Assembly (NCBI GenBank): GCA_963743885.1
Contig: CAVURJ010000002.1
Coordinates: forward strand, 241,706-305,705
From: Candidatus Moraniibacteriota bacterium
GTDB lineage: Bacteria > Patescibacteriota > Minisyncoccia > Moranbacterales > UBA1568
Reading direction: 5' to 3'
DNA length: 64,000 bases
The position numbers and the translations under genes were made by a program. This document shows, one piece after another, positions 5,856 through 62,369 of this stretch. The notes beneath the pieces were generated by a model. That model worked only from the letters and a program-made list of their open reading frames with translations. It had not been told where the DNA came from and ran no database searches. Position 1 is the first letter of the stretch; the number at the start of each line of letters is the position of its first letter.

Positions 5856-6212
5856 ATGCGGATACAGCGCCGCCAAAACATTTCCTATCAGTCTGCCTGC
5901 TCGTTTCCGAAGCAGCAGGCGCATGGCCCGGCTGGATCGGTGCCGATGCTCGTGCTTGGCGTGCTGGCATTCGCTTTTATGCTCGGCGGCTATCATCTGT
6001 ATTCCGTCAATCGGAGTGCCGTGCAGGGGTATCATATGCGTTCTGCTGAGAAGGATATTGCTGTGCTGAGGCAGGAGAATGCCGATTTGAAGATCGAAGA
6101 AGCTGATCTCCGTTCACTCCGTCGTATCGAGGCGGCCGGCGAAGAGCTCCACATGCAGAAGGCTGCAGAGGAGCGATACCTTGAGGCGCGCGGACCGGTC
6201 GCGATGAGATAA
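5856..6212 (+). CDS. ftsL: FtsL-like cell division protein (single TM helix plus coiled coil).
   Basis: Position between rsmH and ftsI, TM segment MLVLGVLAFAFMLGG and coiled-coil LRQENADLKIEEADL. The N-terminus is uncertain and the true start may be about 5946. Confidence 0.5.
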   Translation: MRIQRRQNISYQSACSFPKQQAHGPAGSVPMLVLGVLAFAFMLGGYHLYSVNRSAVQGYHMRSAEKDIAVLRQENADLKIEEADLRSLRRIEAAGEELHMQKAAEERYLEARGPVAMR

Positions 6213-6234
6213 TAGGAAGATCCGGGTTCTAAGT

Positions 6235-6414
6235 AGCTATCTCAAATCTCATGTCTTGAGAAAACATCTGGATTTCGTGATAGAAACCATGAAAAGTGAG
6301 AAGGGCTATCGTGATATCCCGACGAGCTTTGAGGGGTTTCTAGCCGAAATCCAGATGTTTTATCAGACAAGCCCATGGTTTTTCCCTTATGTAGGCGGTG
6401 GGATTTGAGATAGT
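6235..6414. repeat. Intergenic structured repeat, family B copy 1.
   Basis: Perfect 12-bp terminal inverted repeat ctatctcaaatc/gatttgagatag and an inner 18-bp stem gagaaaacatctggatttcg/cgaaatccagatgttttatc. Shares core blocks (gggctatc, cgacgagctttga, ccgaaatc, gacaagcc) with 22905-23052. Confidence 0.55.
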
Positions 6415-6428
6415 TACTGGAGCGCACT

Positions 6429-8210
6429 ATGGTTGATACGGGACATATACGAACCAAAAGAATCGCAGACAAGAAGAAGCGGCCGTTCGCGGAGAGTGTC
6501 CTTCGCGAACGTTTGCTCGTTTCTGTCATACTGTTTGTCGGAGCCGTCCTGATCGTGCGGCTCTTTTTTGTGCAGGTCCTGTCGCATGAGCGATGGGTGG
6601 CAGTAGCAGAGGATCAGCACAATGCTTTCCAGCCGCTCTCTGCGGAGCGTGGCGGCATATTCATGCATGATACCGACCATCTCTATCCGCTCGCGATTAA
6701 CCGGGAATTCCCGACACTTTTTGTTTCGCCGAAGGATGTTGAGGAGAAGGATCGCGTTGCTCTCGAGCTTTCAGGTATTACTGGTGTCGATGCACAGGAG
6801 ATACGCGAGAAGCTCGGGAAGCCGGATGATCCTTTTGAGATCGTGAAGAAACACCTTTCTGATGATGAGGCGGATCGGGTGCGAGGGCTCGGTCTCCGCG
6901 GTGTGGGGCTCCGTCCGGAGCCGTACCGTTATTATCCTGCTGGCGAGCTTGCTTCGCAGGTGGTAGGGTTTGCGACGGTTGGTCAGGGCGAAGGCGCTGG
7001 TGGCTATGGCATCGAGGCGTCGCAGGAGAGTGTGCTCCGCGGCCAGACCGGGCAGGTGACGCAAGAGAAGGATGCAGCTGGGAGGTGGATACCGCTTTCT
7101 GATCGCCTTGTCGAACCAGCAAAGAACGGGGATGATATTGTGCTGACACTCGACCGCGTCGTCCAGTACGAGGCGGAGAAGATTCTTCGGGAATCCATTG
7201 AGAAATATGCGGCCGATCGTGCGACGGCAATCGTCATGGAGCCTAAGACTGGCAGCATCCTAGCGATGGCATCGGTGCCGGAGTTTGATCCGAATAAATA
7301 TTCGGAGGTTGAAGATTATGCGCTCTTTATGAATCCGGCCGTGAGCGTCTCGTATGAGCCAGGATCGATCATGAAGCCGCTTACGATGGCGATTGGCATC
7401 GAGGAAGGGAAGGTGTCACCGACGACAGAATATGTGGATACCGGCGTCATACACGAAGCTGGCTATGATATACACAATGCAGAGGGGAAATCATACGGTC
7501 GGAGCAACATGTACAAGGTCCTCGACCAGTCGATCAACACCGGCGTGATCTTCGTCGAGCGGCTGGTTGGTAATGCCCGCTTTTCGGAATATGTGAAGCG
7601 TTTCGGTTTTGGTGAGCGGACAGGTGCTGATCTGCCGGCTGAGCTGCCGGGCAATATCCGTAACCTTACTAATCTGAAATCGGACATCCAATTTTTCACG
7701 GCGTCTTTCGGTCAGGGCATCGCGACGACGCCGATGCAGATGGTCAATGCGTATGCAGCGCTTGCTAATGGCGGGACGCTCATGCGGCCGCGCATCATCG
7801 ATCGTATCGTGCACGCTGATGGAAGTGAGGAGGAGATGAGGCCGGAAGCAGTCCGGCGTGTAGTGAGCGAGGAGACAGCAGCAGCGATGGGCACGATGCT
7901 CCGGAGTGTCGTCGTGAATGGCCATGGCAAGCGGGCGGATGTGCCCGGATATCTGGTCGGGGGCAAGACTGGTACGGCGCAGGTGGCGAAGGGCAATGCC
8001 AAGGGGTATGAGGATGGTGTTTCCATCGGTTCGTTCGTCGGTTATGCGCCCATCAATGACCCGAAATTCGTCATATTGGTGAAGCTCGATAATCCGAAGA
8101 ATGTCGAGTGGGCGGAGTCGAGCGCCGCGCCGACATTCGGCGAAATCATGAAATTCCTGCTAGAATACGCGAAGATCAAGCCAACAGAGGAGATAAAAGA
8201 GAAGAAATGA
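6429..8210 (+). CDS. ftsI: Peptidoglycan D,D-transpeptidase FtsI (class B penicillin-binding protein).
   Basis: N-terminal TM, PBP dimerisation domain, and transpeptidase motifs STxK-like SIMKP, SxN and KTGTA. Confidence 0.9.
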   Translation: MVDTGHIRTKRIADKKKRPFAESVLRERLLVSVILFVGAVLIVRLFFVQVLSHERWVAVAEDQHNAFQPLSAERGGIFMHDTDHLYPLAINREFPTLFVSPKDVEEKDRVALELSGITGVDAQEIREKLGKPDDPFEIVKKHLSDDEADRVRGLGLRGVGLRPEPYRYYPAGELASQVVGFATVGQGEGAGGYGIEASQESVLRGQTGQVTQEKDAAGRWIPLSDRLVEPAKNGDDIVLTLDRVVQYEAEKILRESIEKYAADRATAIVMEPKTGSILAMASVPEFDPNKYSEVEDYALFMNPAVSVSYEPGSIMKPLTMAIGIEEGKVSPTTEYVDTGVIHEAGYDIHNAEGKSYGRSNMYKVLDQSINTGVIFVERLVGNARFSEYVKRFGFGERTGADLPAELPGNIRNLTNLKSDIQFFTASFGQGIATTPMQMVNAYAALANGGTLMRPRIIDRIVHADGSEEEMRPEAVRRVVSEETAAAMGTMLRSVVVNGHGKRADVPGYLVGGKTGTAQVAKGNAKGYEDGVSIGSFVGYAPINDPKFVILVKLDNPKNVEWAESSAAPTFGEIMKFLLEYAKIKPTEEIKEKK

Positions 8211-21234: not shown

Positions 21235-22890
21235 ATGACGAAAAAGACTTTCGCTGATTTTTTCGCTCGTCTTGGCGGGCCGAGTCGGACGGTCGGTGCG
21301 GCCGCATTTCTTATTGCTGTTGCCGGTGTAGCGAGTCGGATCCTTGGCTTCTTCCGCGACCGCATCCTCGCGTCGCAGTTCGGAGCGGGCGATACGCTTG
21401 ATGCGTATTACGCCGCTTTCCGCATTCCTGATATACTCTACGGACTTTTGGTGGCCGGGGCGCTCTCGGCGGCGTTCATCCCGGTCTTTACGGAGTTTAT
21501 TGCTAAGAAAGATGAAGCCCGTGCTTGGCGCCTGGCTGATGGCGTGCTGCATCTCTTGATGGCTGCACTCGGCATCCTGGCGGTCTTCGGTATCATCTTC
21601 GCTTCTGAGCTCATGGCATGGATTGCTCCTGGGTTTTCCGACGAGAAGCGTGCTGCTGCTGCGGAACTGACGAGGATTATGCTCCTGTCACCCATCTTTC
21701 TTTCGGTGAGCGCGGTCTTTGGCGGCATTCTCATCTCCTTCAAGCGCTTTGCCGCCTATTCATTTGCGCCGATCTTCTACAATGCCGGCATCATCTTCGG
21801 CGCGGTCTTTCTTGTACCGTCTTTCGGCATCGTGGGTCTCGGCTGGGGCGTCGTGCTCGGCTCGTTCCTTCATATGCTCATCCAGGTGCCGTCGCTCATC
21901 CAGTCAGGCTTCCAGTACCGTTTCCAGTTGTCGTCGGCCTGGCGCGATCGGGATGTTCGGCGTGTGCTCAAGCTCATGATCCCGAGGAGTCTCGGTATGG
22001 CAGCCAATCAGATCGGCCTTCTCGTCATGACGGTCTTCGCGTCGCTTCTTGCTTCCGGCAGCTTGGCAGCCTTCACGCTGGCCAATAATATCCAGAGCGT
22101 CCCTTTGGGGCTCTTTGGCATCGCATTCTCGCTCGCGGCCTTCCCGTCGCTCTCGCTCCTGCTCGCTGAGAACAAGGAGAAGGATTTCTTCCTGATGCTT
22201 GCCGAGACGTCGCGGCGGATCCTTTTCTTTGTCGTGCCGCTTTCCGTCATCATGATCGTCTTTCGGGCGCAGTTCGTTCGTGTCATCCTCGGTGCCGGCG
22301 AGTTCGATTGGAATGATACCATCATGACGTTCGAGATCCTCAAGTGGCTCTCGGTGAGCCTCTTCGCACAGAGCCTGATCCCACTCTTTGCTCGCGCCTT
22401 CTTCGCGCTGCAGGATACTAAGACGCCGTTCTATATCGCGCTCGGGAGCGAGGCGCTCCATATCCTCCTCATACCGGTGCTCATCCCGTACTATTCCGCC
22501 GAGGCGTTGGCGATTGCCTTTTCGGCCGCGAGCATCCTCAATTGCGTACTGCTCTATGTCTTTTTGCGGCGGAGGATCGGCGTCTGGGATGATAGTCGGA
22601 TCTTCCTGCCGACGGCGAAGATCTTCCTAGCAGCCATCGCCGCGGGTCTCATCGCGCAGATCTCGAAATCCGTCTTCGCGCTTACGACCAATGAGCTCGA
22701 TACGTTCGTCGAGGTGTTCCTCCAGCTCGTGACTGGCCTTCTGATCGGTGGTGGCGCCTTCATCGCGCTGTGCTACTGGCTTGAAGTGGATGAGCTCCGC
22801 ATGATTCGCCGGTTCATCTTCTGCAAGATCCTGCGCCAGCCGGAGACGGCCGTGATAGCCGAAGACCATCCGGAGCGCGGCGACTGGTAG
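21235..22890 (+). CDS. murJ: Lipid II flippase MurJ (MviN).
   Basis: About 14 TM helices. The N-terminal GFFRDRILASQFGAGDTLDAYYAAFRIPD is the MurJ signature. Confidence 0.9.
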   Translation: MTKKTFADFFARLGGPSRTVGAAAFLIAVAGVASRILGFFRDRILASQFGAGDTLDAYYAAFRIPDILYGLLVAGALSAAFIPVFTEFIAKKDEARAWRLADGVLHLLMAALGILAVFGIIFASELMAWIAPGFSDEKRAAAAELTRIMLLSPIFLSVSAVFGGILISFKRFAAYSFAPIFYNAGIIFGAVFLVPSFGIVGLGWGVVLGSFLHMLIQVPSLIQSGFQYRFQLSSAWRDRDVRRVLKLMIPRSLGMAANQIGLLVMTVFASLLASGSLAAFTLANNIQSVPLGLFGIAFSLAAFPSLSLLLAENKEKDFFLMLAETSRRILFFVVPLSVIMIVFRAQFVRVILGAGEFDWNDTIMTFEILKWLSVSLFAQSLIPLFARAFFALQDTKTPFYIALGSEALHILLIPVLIPYYSAEALAIAFSAASILNCVLLYVFLRRRIGVWDDSRIFLPTAKIFLAAIAAGLIAQISKSVFALTTNELDTFVEVFLQLVTGLLIGGGAFIALCYWLEVDELRMIRRFIFCKILRQPETAVIAEDHPERGDW

Positions 22891-22904
22891 AGAGAATTAT
22901 GTAA

Positions 22905-23052
22905 GTAATTCTCTCAGATCTTATGTCTCAAGAAAATTTTCGGATTTCGAGGGGAAAACCTTTGAAGAAGCGAGGAGGGCTATCAAGATAACCTGACGAG
23001 CTTTGAAAGGTTTTACACCGAAATCTGAATATTTTATGAGACAAGCCGATTC
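22905..23052. repeat. Family B repeat copy 2.
   Basis: Same orientation as B1 and shares the conserved core blocks. Stem positions differ from B1 by paired substitutions, so the structure is conserved. Confidence 0.5.
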
Positions 23053-23143
23053 TTTCTTTTTTGGTGGCGGTGAGATTGAGAGAATTACTAAAAAAACATC
23101 CCCGGGACTATTCAAGTCTCGGGGTTTTTGATAAGGAGGTGAT

Positions 23144-46276: not shown

Positions 46277-47878
46277 TTATATAGCATACGTTTTGTTAGA
46301 TAATATGGGCCTGTAGTAAAGTGGTATTACGCGGCATTCGCATTGCCGAGTCGGGAGTTCGATTCTCCCCAGGTCCACCAAATCGGATTTTTTATCGCCA
46401 AAGGTCTCACTTATCTCAAAGATAAGCCCCAATTTGGCAGTTCCAAATCCTACACCTTTCGTATAGCGTATTCCCTCGGGAAAAACCAGTTTTTGGAACC
46501 GAGGATACAGATGCGGGGGTAAATCCGTCCATTGTCTTCCTAAATCGCTTATGTAGCGTTCTGCATAGGCTACCGAGGCTTCTGCATCGAATTGTTCTAT
46601 CCGAGCCTCACTTCGCGAAATACGCGAAGCTATGAGTTCGTTTTCTACTTCGGCTTTCCGTTCGGTAAATTCTTCCTTTGTATAGGAGCCGTCTTCTCGC
46701 ATCTCGAAAATCCGTTTACGCTTCTCTTCCAAAAGGGCGATTGTCTTATCGTATCGTTTCGCCTCGGCTTCAAAATGTCCGCCTTTGTCTTTCCAGATAC
46801 TCACAATGGTCGAGTTGATGAGGTCGCGAACTTTCTTCTTAGGGATGATTTTTTGGAGCTTCTTTACGAAGTCTTCTGCTACCTTGTCCACGGAAAGACT
46901 TTTGCAATACATAGAGCAACCCTTGGTGAAGCAATGATAGTAGGGGTATGCTCCACCTGTTCCGTGGGAAATACTCGCGGTTACTGCTTTACCGCACTCT
47001 CCGCAGAGGATTGTTTTCCGCAAAGGAAAGGTTGGATTTACCTTGTGGCGGAGGATTTTCACGCCCTTACCCGCCATTCGTTGTTTGATTTGATAGTGTT
47101 CTTCTTCTGTAATCATCGGTTTGTGCAATCCTTTGACTTCTTCTTTCGCCCACGGATTGACGATGATACCTGCATAAAAGTTCAAATGCCTGAAAAGCAA
47201 TCCGCTCACGAATTGCACTCGTGTTTTGCTTCCTCGGTATTTATCAAGCCCCCACTCATTGAACAAACGAGCAAGCTCTGTTTGAGAGACTTGCCCGCGA
47301 GCGTATTCTTTCAATCCGCGTTGAATAATAGGAAAGATGTTTTCGTCTGGCTTGTCGGGTTCGTTTTTCTTTTCGCCTCGTTTCTTGGCTTGTCCGCAAA
47401 TGTAGCCGATAGGAGGCTTCCACGGAAAGATGCCTTGGTTTATTCGTGAAATCATTCCGTCCACGCAACGCTGACGACGAACGGCATTATCAAATTCAGC
47501 ACTGCCCGCCAACACGGTCTCGATGAACTTTTCGGTCGGGTTGTTTCCAATTGGTTCCGTTACGGAATGGAGGGTTACGCCATAATCAAGAAGCACCTTG
47601 CGGACATAGAAATGGTCTTCGGTATTTCTGGCGAACCTGTCTACTTTGGCAACTACAAACGCATCCATTTCCCCTTTATTCTTTCGGCAAAGTTCGATAG
47701 CTCGCAGGAACTCCTTGCGGTCGGCAGATTTTGCCGAAGCTCCCTCCTCACGGAAAACGGCTACGATTTCGATGCCTCGGTCTTTGCAATAGTTTCGGCA
47801 AATCTCTTCTTGAAAATCAAGAGAAGTGCCTTTGATTTGTTCGTCGCTTGATACGCGTGTATAGATTATTCCTTTCAT
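46277..47878 (-). CDS. Large serine recombinase (resolvase/invertase N-domain, recombinase domain and zinc ribbon).
   Basis: Starts MKGIIYTRVSSDEQ with the catalytic Ser, then ...VAKVDRFARN and CGECGK..YYHC zinc ribbon. The open frame runs antisense through the tRNA, so the true C-terminus is probably shorter. Confidence 0.85.
   Translation of the reverse strand: MKGIIYTRVSSDEQIKGTSLDFQEEICRNYCKDRGIEIVAVFREEGASAKSADRKEFLRAIELCRKNKGEMDAFVVAKVDRFARNTEDHFYVRKVLLDYGVTLHSVTEPIGNNPTEKFIETVLAGSAEFDNAVRRQRCVDGMISRINQGIFPWKPPIGYICGQAKKRGEKKNEPDKPDENIFPIIQRGLKEYARGQVSQTELARLFNEWGLDKYRGSKTRVQFVSGLLFRHLNFYAGIIVNPWAKEEVKGLHKPMITEEEHYQIKQRMAGKGVKILRHKVNPTFPLRKTILCGECGKAVTASISHGTGGAYPYYHCFTKGCSMYCKSLSVDKVAEDFVKKLQKIIPKKKVRDLINSTIVSIWKDKGGHFEAEAKRYDKTIALLEEKRKRIFEMREDGSYTKEEFTERKAEVENELIASRISRSEARIEQFDAEASVAYAERYISDLGRQWTDLPPHLYPRFQKLVFPEGIRYTKGVGFGTAKLGLIFEISETFGDKKSDLVDLGRIELPTRQCECRVIPLYYRPILSNKTYAI
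46307..46380 (+). tRNA. tRNA-Ala (anticodon CGC) with genome-encoded CCA.
   Basis: Cloverleaf folded by hand: 7-bp acceptor stem with G3:U70, D stem gtaa/ttac, anticodon stem cggca/tgccg with loop ttCGCat, T arm gggag-TTCGATT-ctccc, discriminator A plus CCA. Confidence 0.85.
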
Positions 47879-61146: not shown

Positions 61147-62369
61147 ATTTTTCCGATCTCAAGAATTATGAGTATACCCTCCCGCCGGAATTGATCCGGA
61201 AGGAGGGGGTGGAGCCGCGAGACAGCGCGCGCCTGTTTGTTTATGACACGCGGACGGATACCGTGACATTTGATACGTTCGCTCATATAGCACAGTATCT
61301 GCCGGAGCGATCGCTTCTGACGCTCAACGATACCAAAGTACTGCCGGCGCGGCTCTGGCTCAAGAAGGAGACCGGCGGCAAGATCGAAGTCTTCGTGTTG
61401 GCTAATGAGATTAGTCAGTCACCACCTCCCCTTTCCAAGGGGAGGGTAGGGAGGGGTGAGAGTGAGAGTATCAAGAACCCCTCAGTCTCGCAGACTCGAC
61501 AGCTCCCCTTGGAAAGGGGGGCGAGAGAGATAGTTCCGGCTTTGGTCGATCGGAAGACCGAGGTCGGGCAGAAGCTCATCTTCCCGACGGGGGAATATTT
61601 CGAAGTGGTTGGACAAGAAGAGAATGTCTTCTTCCTCGAGCTGTTCACGTACGCGGACCGTACGCTTCCGCTTCTGCTTGATCTCTTTGGCGAGACACCG
61701 CTCCCGCACTATCTTGAAGGAGCAGAGACGCCAGAGGATACCTTGCGCAAGCGGTATCAGACGGTCTTCGCAGCCGCTGGGGCATCGGTCGCGGCGCCGA
61801 CGGCCTCGCTTCACTTCACTGAGGCCGTGTTTGAGTCTCTGGATGAGAAGGGGATTGAGACGGCGCGGCTCACGCTCAATGTGGGCCTCGGGACCTTCGC
61901 TCCGCTCCGTGAGGAGAGCTTCGTGACGGGTAGGCTCCATGCAGAATACGTCTCGGTCTCGGAAGAGACGGCTGAGCGGATCAATGCGGCAAAGAGCGAG
62001 GAGAGAGGTATCGTCGCGGTCGGCACGACGGTGGCTCGGACGCTCGAGTCGGTCGCATCAAAGTCTTACAACTTAAGCAATTGCTCAAATTGTAAGACTG
62101 ATGGTGGCAAGGATGACGGAGCAGAGATGCTAGGAAAAATGATGGCCTATGCTGGCAAGACGGATATCTTCATCTACCCACCGTATAAGTTCCAGGTAGT
62201 CGATCATCTCATTACGAATTTTCATTTGCCAGAGACGTCGCTCATGCTTCTGGTGGATGCCTTCCTCGCGCACAAGGGTGCCAAGCGCCGCATCATGGAC
62301 CTCTACTCTATCGCCATCAAGGAGCAGTTCGCCTTCTATTCTTTCGGTGATAGCATGCTGATTTTGTAG
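61143..62369 (+). CDS. queA: S-adenosylmethionine:tRNA ribosyltransferase-isomerase QueA, carrying in-frame insertions.
   Basis: TLPPELI, NDTKVLPARL, GGKIEVFVL, GTTVARTLES, VTNFHLPETSLMLLV and FFSYGDSMLI motifs. Carries extra segments at about 61405-61545 and 62058-62130 relative to QueA as I remember it. Confidence 0.85.
   Translation: MNFSDLKNYEYTLPPELIRKEGVEPRDSARLFVYDTRTDTVTFDTFAHIAQYLPERSLLTLNDTKVLPARLWLKKETGGKIEVFVLANEISQSPPPLSKGRVGRGESESIKNPSVSQTRQLPLERGAREIVPALVDRKTEVGQKLIFPTGEYFEVVGQEENVFFLELFTYADRTLPLLLDLFGETPLPHYLEGAETPEDTLRKRYQTVFAAAGASVAAPTASLHFTEAVFESLDEKGIETARLTLNVGLGTFAPLREESFVTGRLHAEYVSVSEETAERINAAKSEERGIVAVGTTVARTLESVASKSYNLSNCSNCKTDGGKDDGAEMLGKMMAYAGKTDIFIYPPYKFQVVDHLITNFHLPETSLMLLVDAFLAHKGAKRRIMDLYSIAIKEQFAFYSFGDSMLIL

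Follow-up and report, generated by a model that had tools for sequence, protein, structure and literature searches.

A dispersed 184-bp element of Moranbacteria-like Patescibacteria, probably a non-autonomous MITE, with a rod-like strand-specific fold

The window, a stretch of 64,000 nt from a Candidatus Moraniibacteriota genome, carries two copies, here named B1 and B2, of an element that is found at many further loci in related genomes. Our best explanation, to which we assign a probability of roughly three in four, is that B1 and B2 arose by insertion of a non-autonomous MITE of 184 bp that is restricted to Moranbacteria-like Patescibacteria and is mobilised in trans. The element is a rod that is kept intact by compensatory changes. 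It is a new MITE family of a familiar type in an unusual host group, and it is neither a ribozyme nor a new class of RNA gene.

Two copies in the window and their relatives

Both copies lie on the + strand, in agreement with the first-pass annotation of this DNA, which had described two copies in the same orientation. The core pattern GGGCTATCNNGATANCCNGACGAGCTTTGA (30 nt) has two exact matches in the window and none in 100 shuffles. Scanning the window with a covariance model of the family, R1, returned B1 and B2 and no additional copy. The features of the two copies and of their immediate surroundings are the following (positions are those of the window).

6230-6232, + strand: TAA at the 5' flank of B1 (target-site trinucleotide, from the flank table)
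6233-6417, + strand: B1, full copy of the element, 185 nt (R1 187.3 bits over model positions 1-184; nhmmer E = 1.6e-49)
6233-6251, + strand: B1 terminal stem P1, 5' arm, which is the inverted-repeat end and pairs with 6399-6417
6252-6369, + strand: B1 long central hairpin, P2 to P6 (helices 2-6, invariant columns)
6370-6398, + strand: B1 variable T-rich side branch (AGC ... GCGG; alignment columns 147-183), with helix 7 of two pairs
6399-6417, + strand: B1 terminal stem P1, 3' arm (helix 1)
6418-6420, + strand: TGG at the 3' flank of B1 (flank table)
22902-22904, + strand: TAA duplication of B2, 5' copy (TAA at both flanks)
22905-23088, + strand: B2, full copy of the element, 184 nt (R1 168.6 bits over model positions 1-184)
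23089-23091, + strand: TAA duplication of B2, 3' copy (TAA at both flanks)
23100-23124, + strand: terminator-like hairpin and T run after B2, outside the element (10-pair stem with seven G-C pairs, then TTTTT)

The first-pass annotation had placed B1 at 6235-6414, which comes close to the limits given here, and had ended B2 at 23052, which misses its last 36 nt. According to the family alignment and the model, these 36 nt include the 3' arm of the terminal stem. B1 and B2 are 72% identical (134/187 columns).

Downstream of mraZ and rsmH, B1 occupies the spacer between an ORF of 118 aa in the position of ftsL (5856-6212, without a Pfam match) and the PBP/FtsI gene (6429-8210). It is flanked by TAA on one side and TGG on the other, and its target duplication has thus decayed and is no longer intact. 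The 3' flank reads TGGAG (window 6418-6431) and places GGAG 5 nt before the ftsI ATG, so that the ftsI ribosome-binding site adjoins the end of the element. B2 starts 14 nt past the MurJ gene (21235-22890; MurJ Pfam E = 4.8e-95). Beyond the terminator-like hairpin that follows B2 lies a convergent gene of the CoA-ligase type. Judged by the position of this hairpin, B2 is probably part of the 3' untranslated region of the murJ transcript. A promoter search found none inside B1 or B2 and, directed outward from them, one weak match that overlaps the ftsI start codon. The window also holds a second, unrelated repeat pair at 624-673 and 61471-61520 (84% identity over 50 nt), a hairpin of the form CCCCTTGGAAA(A/G)GGGG whose similarity reaches about 60 nt. 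This pair is probably the other repeat family of the first-pass annotation.

Species-representative genomes were scanned in one pass with the exact pattern GACGAGCTTTGA-N(8-20)-CCGAAATC. The scan returned 40 loci, 29 of which carry the same element as B1 and B2, and after a profile search the full-length copies number 33 in total. They are spread over 10 MAGs of the Patescibacteria/Moraniibacteriota type. Counted with the strict pattern, JBAQNF01 holds at least eight copies, WH4.bin1 five, and CAZPXK01 and CAZBFG01 four each. The length of the element ranges from 178 to 193 nt around a consensus unit of 184 nt, and its G+C content is 35-47%, compared with 34-59% for the hosts. One copy, at L020 (1734-1918, - strand), has the 5' arm of its long stem swapped for a G+C-rich hairpin, CCCGCCACGGCGGG; at 133 bits with R1 it is the lowest-scoring full copy.

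Titles of the host MAGs read 'uncultured Bdellovibrionales', 'bacterium WH4.bin1', Patescibacteria group and Candidatus Moraniibacteriota. The Bdellovibrionales title (L008, L009, L017, L035 and others) is probably wrong, since the MAGs concerned are syntenic with a Moraniibacteriota MAG. Loci L008 and L027 share 72.7% nucleotide identity over 4.4 kb, and their proteins reach up to 94% identity. The window is itself syntenic with that same Moraniibacteriota MAG, at 65-73% nucleotide identity. Identity among copies of the element is 0.815 within genomes and 0.790 between genomes, with a within-genome maximum of 0.94. Copies that share a genome are thus no more alike than copies from different genomes, which does not fit a plain MITE. 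As no pair of copies from the same genome exceeds 94% identity, nothing points to very recent activity.

Phage and plasmid records gave no match (blastn, distant mode). The core pattern occurs at three loci of viral contigs; the one that has the family's 31-nt spacing, L042, is a high-G+C sequence under ORFs and not the element. The 14-nt end pattern occurs at 120 loci of viral contigs, none of which matches the family profile. When metagenomes were scanned with the 20-nt 5' end, one true copy, L164, came up together with 10 unrelated intergenic hairpins (L165-L174). Several of these hairpins are visibly made of TCTCANN-like heptads and represent a different repeat from the element, and two are located upstream of genes read as purM and rplT. 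In the element, the first 26 nt of most copies show TCTCA three times at a 7-nt period; exact TCTCA units number two in B1 (6240-6258) and one in B2 (22912-22930).

A rod maintained by compensatory changes

Folding gives a single long rod for both window copies: B1 reaches -88.3 kcal/mol (z = -9.8), and B2 reaches -73.3 kcal/mol (z = -7.4). Structure statistics were calculated on 31 aligned copies, and 500 shuffles as well as partners slid by 1-3 columns served as controls. The consensus fold comprises 63 pairs in a 19-bp terminal stem, the long hairpin P2-P6 and a two-pair branch. The long hairpin has about 55 pairs, two purine-rich internal loops that are conserved, and a small, variable T-rich branch. 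The element is thus self-complementary over nearly all of its length. Across the alignment 97.0% of the cells are paired, compared to 88.9% in the shuffles and 25-50% in the slid controls. Changes on both sides of a pair are found at 35 of the 63 pairs (15.5 in shuffles). The covariation score amounts to 0.285, compared with 0.131 in shuffles, none of which reaches the observed value (0/500), and 0.03-0.06 in the slid controls. Indeed, none of the 500 shuffles equals the observed value on any of five measures. The terminal stem, helix 1, contributes 19 pairs, 14 of them altered on both sides, and 95.4% of its cells are paired.

Between B1 and B2 alone, 47 of the 63 family pairs are identical, 5 are altered on both sides with pairing kept, 8 are altered on one side with pairing kept via G.U, and 3 are disrupted in one copy. 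The first-pass annotation had read a conserved secondary structure from such paired changes, and the 31 aligned copies confirm it with strong covariation. It had further described an 18-bp perfect stem in B1. The long stem is present, and its longest unbroken Watson-Crick run, counted by hand, comes close to that figure at 17 bp (AAAACATCTGGATTTCG with CGAAATCCAGATGTTTT). Four conserved blocks that had been called single-stranded turned out to be mostly paired: GGGCTAT belongs to the apical stem, stem strands are likewise formed by CCGAAATC and GAGACA, and GACGAG alone is located in an internal loop.

In the central hairpin of B1 the internal loops GA/GA and RA/GA are conserved, with GTGAGAAGGG facing CCCGACGAGC, and the apical stem GGGCTAT/ATATCCC carries the loop CGTG. 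Throughout the alignment the purine-rich unpaired stretches GUGAG-R-A, facing GACGAG, are near-invariant, and we read them as tandem G.A pairs. The apical stem is near-invariant as well, even in the most divergent copy, L039b. The T-rich side branch is the sole poorly conserved part of the element, and conservation is higher in the unpaired loops than at the outermost inverted-repeat bases. A small ORF that would start at an ATG in the apical loop, after GGAGG, was considered and rejected, as this start is replaced by GTG, AAG, GAG, CGC and other triplets in other copies.

At gathering thresholds, Rfam (4227 families) matched the whole window only at a tRNA gene (46307-46377). A permissive search of B1 and B2 (E <= 10) gave only sub-threshold look-alikes of microRNA hairpins and leaders. 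The first-pass annotation had proposed this comparison with Rfam, and it returned no relevant family at either threshold. It had also proposed a covariance model built from wider matches and had regarded a lack of further copies and of covariation as evidence against its reading; the model was built, and both more copies and covariation were found.

Insertion sites and mobilisation

The first base of the element, G, and its last base, C, are invariant, and the ends have the form 5'-G-NNN-C...G-N'N'N'-C-3'. In 12 of 30 copies the same 3 bp flank the element on both sides, whereas 3.9 are expected (shuffle p = 4e-5). The duplicated trinucleotides are TAA, TTA, TCA and TGA. The 5' flank has T in 23/30 copies, any base, and A in 27/30, and the 3' flank has T in 27/30, any base, and A in 19/30. 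There is a weak outer preference for C at -4 (12/30) and for G at +4 (10/30).

Filled and empty sites were found by comparing related loci. L008 and L027 are reciprocally filled and empty at two positions, and homology of the empty site picks up straight after the duplicated TCA or TGA. L033 and L019 provide a third case. Furthermore, 3'-end remnants of additional copies were observed at L014 (6453-6466) and L039 (3422-3461, - strand). The 14-nt remnant at L014, TATTGAATAGTTAC, has the stop codon of a gene on one side and, on the other, the TTA flanking a complete copy; a newer insertion has therefore landed at the flank of an older copy.

Taken as a whole, the element is shorter than about 400 bp and contains no transposase gene, it has inverted repeats and a target duplication, and it occurs in dispersed copies with insertion polymorphism, which are the defining features of MITEs (PMC3184786). 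The first-pass annotation had offered a MITE with terminal inverted repeats as the alternative to a conserved RNA structure. The inverted-repeat ends, 3-bp duplications, dispersed copies and filled/empty sites speak for that alternative, and the structure and the MITE thus hold together, as both are supported.

The neighbours of the element are housekeeping genes, and the flanking genes fall into 73 unrelated Pfam families. About seven copies are sense to both neighbours and eight are antisense to both, while five lie in convergent and six in divergent spacers. The operon contexts of L008 and L027 were confirmed by orthology and include antisense copies within operons. In 7-8 of 31 copies the stop codon of a neighbour is contained in the duplicated trinucleotide or in the terminus of the element. 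Orientation is not biased with respect to local GC skew, used as a proxy for replication direction (19/31 positive). As a measure of purifying selection in place, orthologous copies were compared; differences within the element compared with the flanks amount to 3/183 vs 92/2993 and 3/184 vs 3/143, a comparison that is underpowered.

The first-pass annotation had held that association with a transposase elsewhere would make the element a plain MITE. In the flanking DNA, about 266 kb, no transposase-bearing relative with the same ends was detected, nor did the 20-nt 5' end retrieve a partner transposon from the metagenomes. The all-against-all comparison of ORFs across the loci recovered orthologous housekeeping genes only. 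A regular expression for the IS5-type Y-2-R-3-E-6-K motif had three matches, all in small unrelated ORFs and none credible, and Pfam searches of 57 flanking genes contained no transposase among the best 25 of 73 families. Transposons of the PHIS superfamily typically produce 3-bp duplications, C-TNA-G included (PMC4482050). The element shares the 3-bp T-N-A duplication of IS5/PIF-Harbinger (PHIS), with a weak C/G preference, and from this duplication at a C-TNA-G-like target we infer a DDE transposase of the PHIS class. As no transposase with matching ends was found, the assignment to IS5/PHIS is one by duplication length and target only. We conclude that the element is probably mobilised by a DDE transposase of the IS5/PIF-Harbinger type.

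The MITE could then operate as follows. A DDE transposase (IS5/PIF-Harbinger) would act on the element in trans. The element inserts, in either orientation, at T-N-A in the short spacers between housekeeping genes, with duplication of three bases. The insertion would be tolerated because the target site is rebuilt, including a stop codon located there. Indeed, targeting of T-N-A makes stop codons and their complements natural landing sites, and the site is rebuilt on both sides. Read-through in the + sense would produce a very stable RNA rod within a transcript; the B1 rod would lie inside the rsmH-'ftsL'-ftsI transcript and the B2 rod in the murJ 3' untranslated region. Such a rod would be expected to act as a processing or stability element of the RNase III type and not as a sensor or ribozyme. 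By analogy to Correia, ERIC and bcr1 (PMC3184786), the rod may be processed or stabilised by a double-strand-specific RNase.

Strand bias, alternative readings and known repeats

The fold is specific for one strand. Read on the + strand, the 31 copies contain 137 G.U and 11 A.C wobble cells, and after removal of four G.U-rich pairs the counts are 49 and 11 (p = 8e-7). The + strand is the more stable one in 31/31 copies (mean -79.2 vs -62.2 kcal/mol), and R1 scores are 133-203 bits on the + strand compared to 19-57 bits on the reverse strand. Copies that were scored antisense to both neighbours show this bias just as strongly (39 G.U vs 6 A.C). At one of these eight loci, L024 (2281-2536, - strand), the element is located 3 nt upstream of a cluster of tRNA-Val, tRNA-Phe and tRNA-Met on the same strand, which makes an ORF-only view of this locus misleading. 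Read-through RNA acting locus by locus cannot on its own explain the strand bias.

Wobble classes that are common to at least two copies are G.U in 15/15 cases and never A.C, counts that are not independent events, whereas singleton wobbles are near parity (19 G.U vs 11 A.C, p = 0.20). This pattern suggests selection on propagating lineages and neutral decay afterwards. The selected form would be a single-stranded + strand molecule, most simply the read-through RNA, although the strand bias, as indirect evidence, would fit single-stranded DNA as well as RNA. These features do not fit a plain MITE. Double-stranded cut-and-paste gives no reason for a G.U bias, and loops that outlast the end bases run counter to what MITEs usually show.

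The ends, in turn, behave differently from the interior. End positions 2-4 vary, yet they are complementary in 24/31 copies. The outer 7 bp of both ends switch jointly between GTAACTN...NAGTTAC and GAGCCTG...CAGGCTC (A2 alignment columns 1-7 and 196-202), and both end types coexist in the same genomes. With respect to the tree of the interior, the end type is distributed at random (15 Fitch changes vs 15.3 in shuffles), which suggests recombination between copies or exchangeable end modules.

These data raise the alternative that the element spreads via a folded single-stranded intermediate of the + strand, RNA or ssDNA, in which the rod with its paired termini is the substrate of the enzyme. 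We regard this as unlikely. The fold would be selected in the source copies, and inserted copies would decay later. Such a filter on propagating lineages would account for shared wobbles that are all G.U next to singletons near parity, with the reservation on independence made above, and for a wobble bias that is unrelated to the orientation of host genes. Termini that vary but stay complementary, uncoupled from the interior, suggest that the ends must pair, and the loops are conserved even in L039b. Recombination between copies, however, could also uncouple the ends from the interior. Neither a reverse transcriptase nor an HUH gene was found beside the copies among the best 25 of the 73 flanking Pfam families. 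Single-strand transposons such as IS200/IS605 and IS91 are not known to duplicate their target. The element has a fixed 3-bp T-N-A duplication, which is characteristic of a DDE enzyme that cuts the two strands with a stagger (PMC4482050).

It is similarly doubtful that the rod is more than filler, be it as a folded + strand substrate of transposition or as a functional RNA cargo between exchangeable ends. As a cargo, in the streamlined genomes of Patescibacteria, it would offer the conserved purine-rich loops as a putative protein-binding site. As a substrate it would, if true, represent a transposition route that is undescribed among elements with target duplications.

Strong covariation, conserved loops and a strand-specific fold would also be expected of structured ncRNA genes or cis-regulatory RNAs that are not mobile and whose paralogues are kept for a host function, and with no match in Rfam an undescribed RNA is conceivable. 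Target duplications and filled/empty sites stand against this reading, and the insertion polymorphism largely refutes it. In addition, the copies are of mixed orientation, with antisense copies in the orthology-verified operons of L008 and L027, B1 and B2 have no internal promoter, the neighbours are unrelated, and 3' remnants exist. We therefore consider it very improbable.

Even less credit can be given to a REP/REPIN palindrome or an IS200/IS605 derivative kept by a single-strand transposase of the Y1/HUH type, in spite of the long hairpin, the many intergenic copies and the strand-specific pairing. REP/REPIN and IS200/IS605 elements are not known to duplicate their target, and a fixed short motif adjoins their insertion sites. 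In our family the trinucleotide at the flanks differs from copy to copy and is duplicated, and the 184-nt unit, whose conserved interior is complex, contrasts with a palindrome or doublet of 20-40 nt.

A hammerhead-like self-cleaving ribozyme or a retrozyme-like element is rejected on core sequence and topology: B2 does contain CUGACGAG with CGAAAUC further on, but CUGACGAG is found in 6/31 copies against 24/31 with CCGACGAG, which lacks the U of CUGANGA, the stretch forms tandem G.A pairs facing GUGAG in a continuous rod without a three-way junction, and no ribozyme family was matched by B1 or B2 at E <= 10. The first-pass annotation, which had raised the hammerhead, correctly saw CTGACGAG in B2 where B1 reads CCGACGAG; in the family, however, it is not confined to B2, since 6/31 copies have it, and the hint at a ribozyme does not survive the comparison. 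The likeness of the element to the hammerhead families of Rfam consists in the CUGANGA-like heptamer (6/31 copies) and the tandem G.A pairs, and it differs from them in that its core is not conserved and the three-way junction is missing.

The trans-mobilised MITE thus remains our preferred reading. In a full-text search of the literature we found no paper describing MITEs in Patescibacteria, and the two terms co-occur only in passing. Patescibacteria have very small genomes, and a selfish element persists there inside essential operons, in the window the division and cell-wall cluster, without gene breakage. For strain typing, and for following exchange between Moranbacteria, the element offers a ready marker, and the covariance model R1 prevents its loci from being misread as new riboswitches or ribozymes. 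The strand-specific fold raises the testable question whether a single-stranded stage is needed by some MITEs.

Among the PIF/Harbinger-IS5 (PHIS) transposons and the Tourist-type MITEs, the NuwaII group has a C-TNA-G target that resembles the T-N-A of the element (PMC4482050). The NuwaII target is eukaryotic and that of bacterial IS5 is given as ANT (PMC4482050), so this is a link by target signature only.

The Correia/NEMIS repeats of Neisseria, ERIC of enterobacteria and RUP of pneumococcus are, like the element, gene-free units of 100-200 bp with inverted-repeat ends and short target duplications; they are intergenic, present in many copies and form long stem-loops, often at the 3' ends of genes with which they are co-transcribed (PMC3184786; PMC10969869). 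The element has no sequence similarity to them, and its hosts are Patescibacteria. In ERIC a TA motif flanks both termini (PMC3184786), in contrast to the 3-bp T-N-A duplication of the element. Unlike Correia, ERIC and RUP, the element conserves its loops more than its end bases, and its wobbles are one-stranded.

The closest analogue in concept comes from the Bacillus cereus group. There, bcr1 is a mobile repeat, about 155 bp long, with short direct repeats and a placement that varies between related strains; it is transcribed, and compensatory changes keep its structure at the RNA level (PMC3184786). The element and bcr1 are unrelated in sequence. While bcr1 has 5-bp direct repeats and a cruciform-like form with two stem-loops, the element described here combines a 3-bp duplication with true inverted-repeat ends and one long rod.
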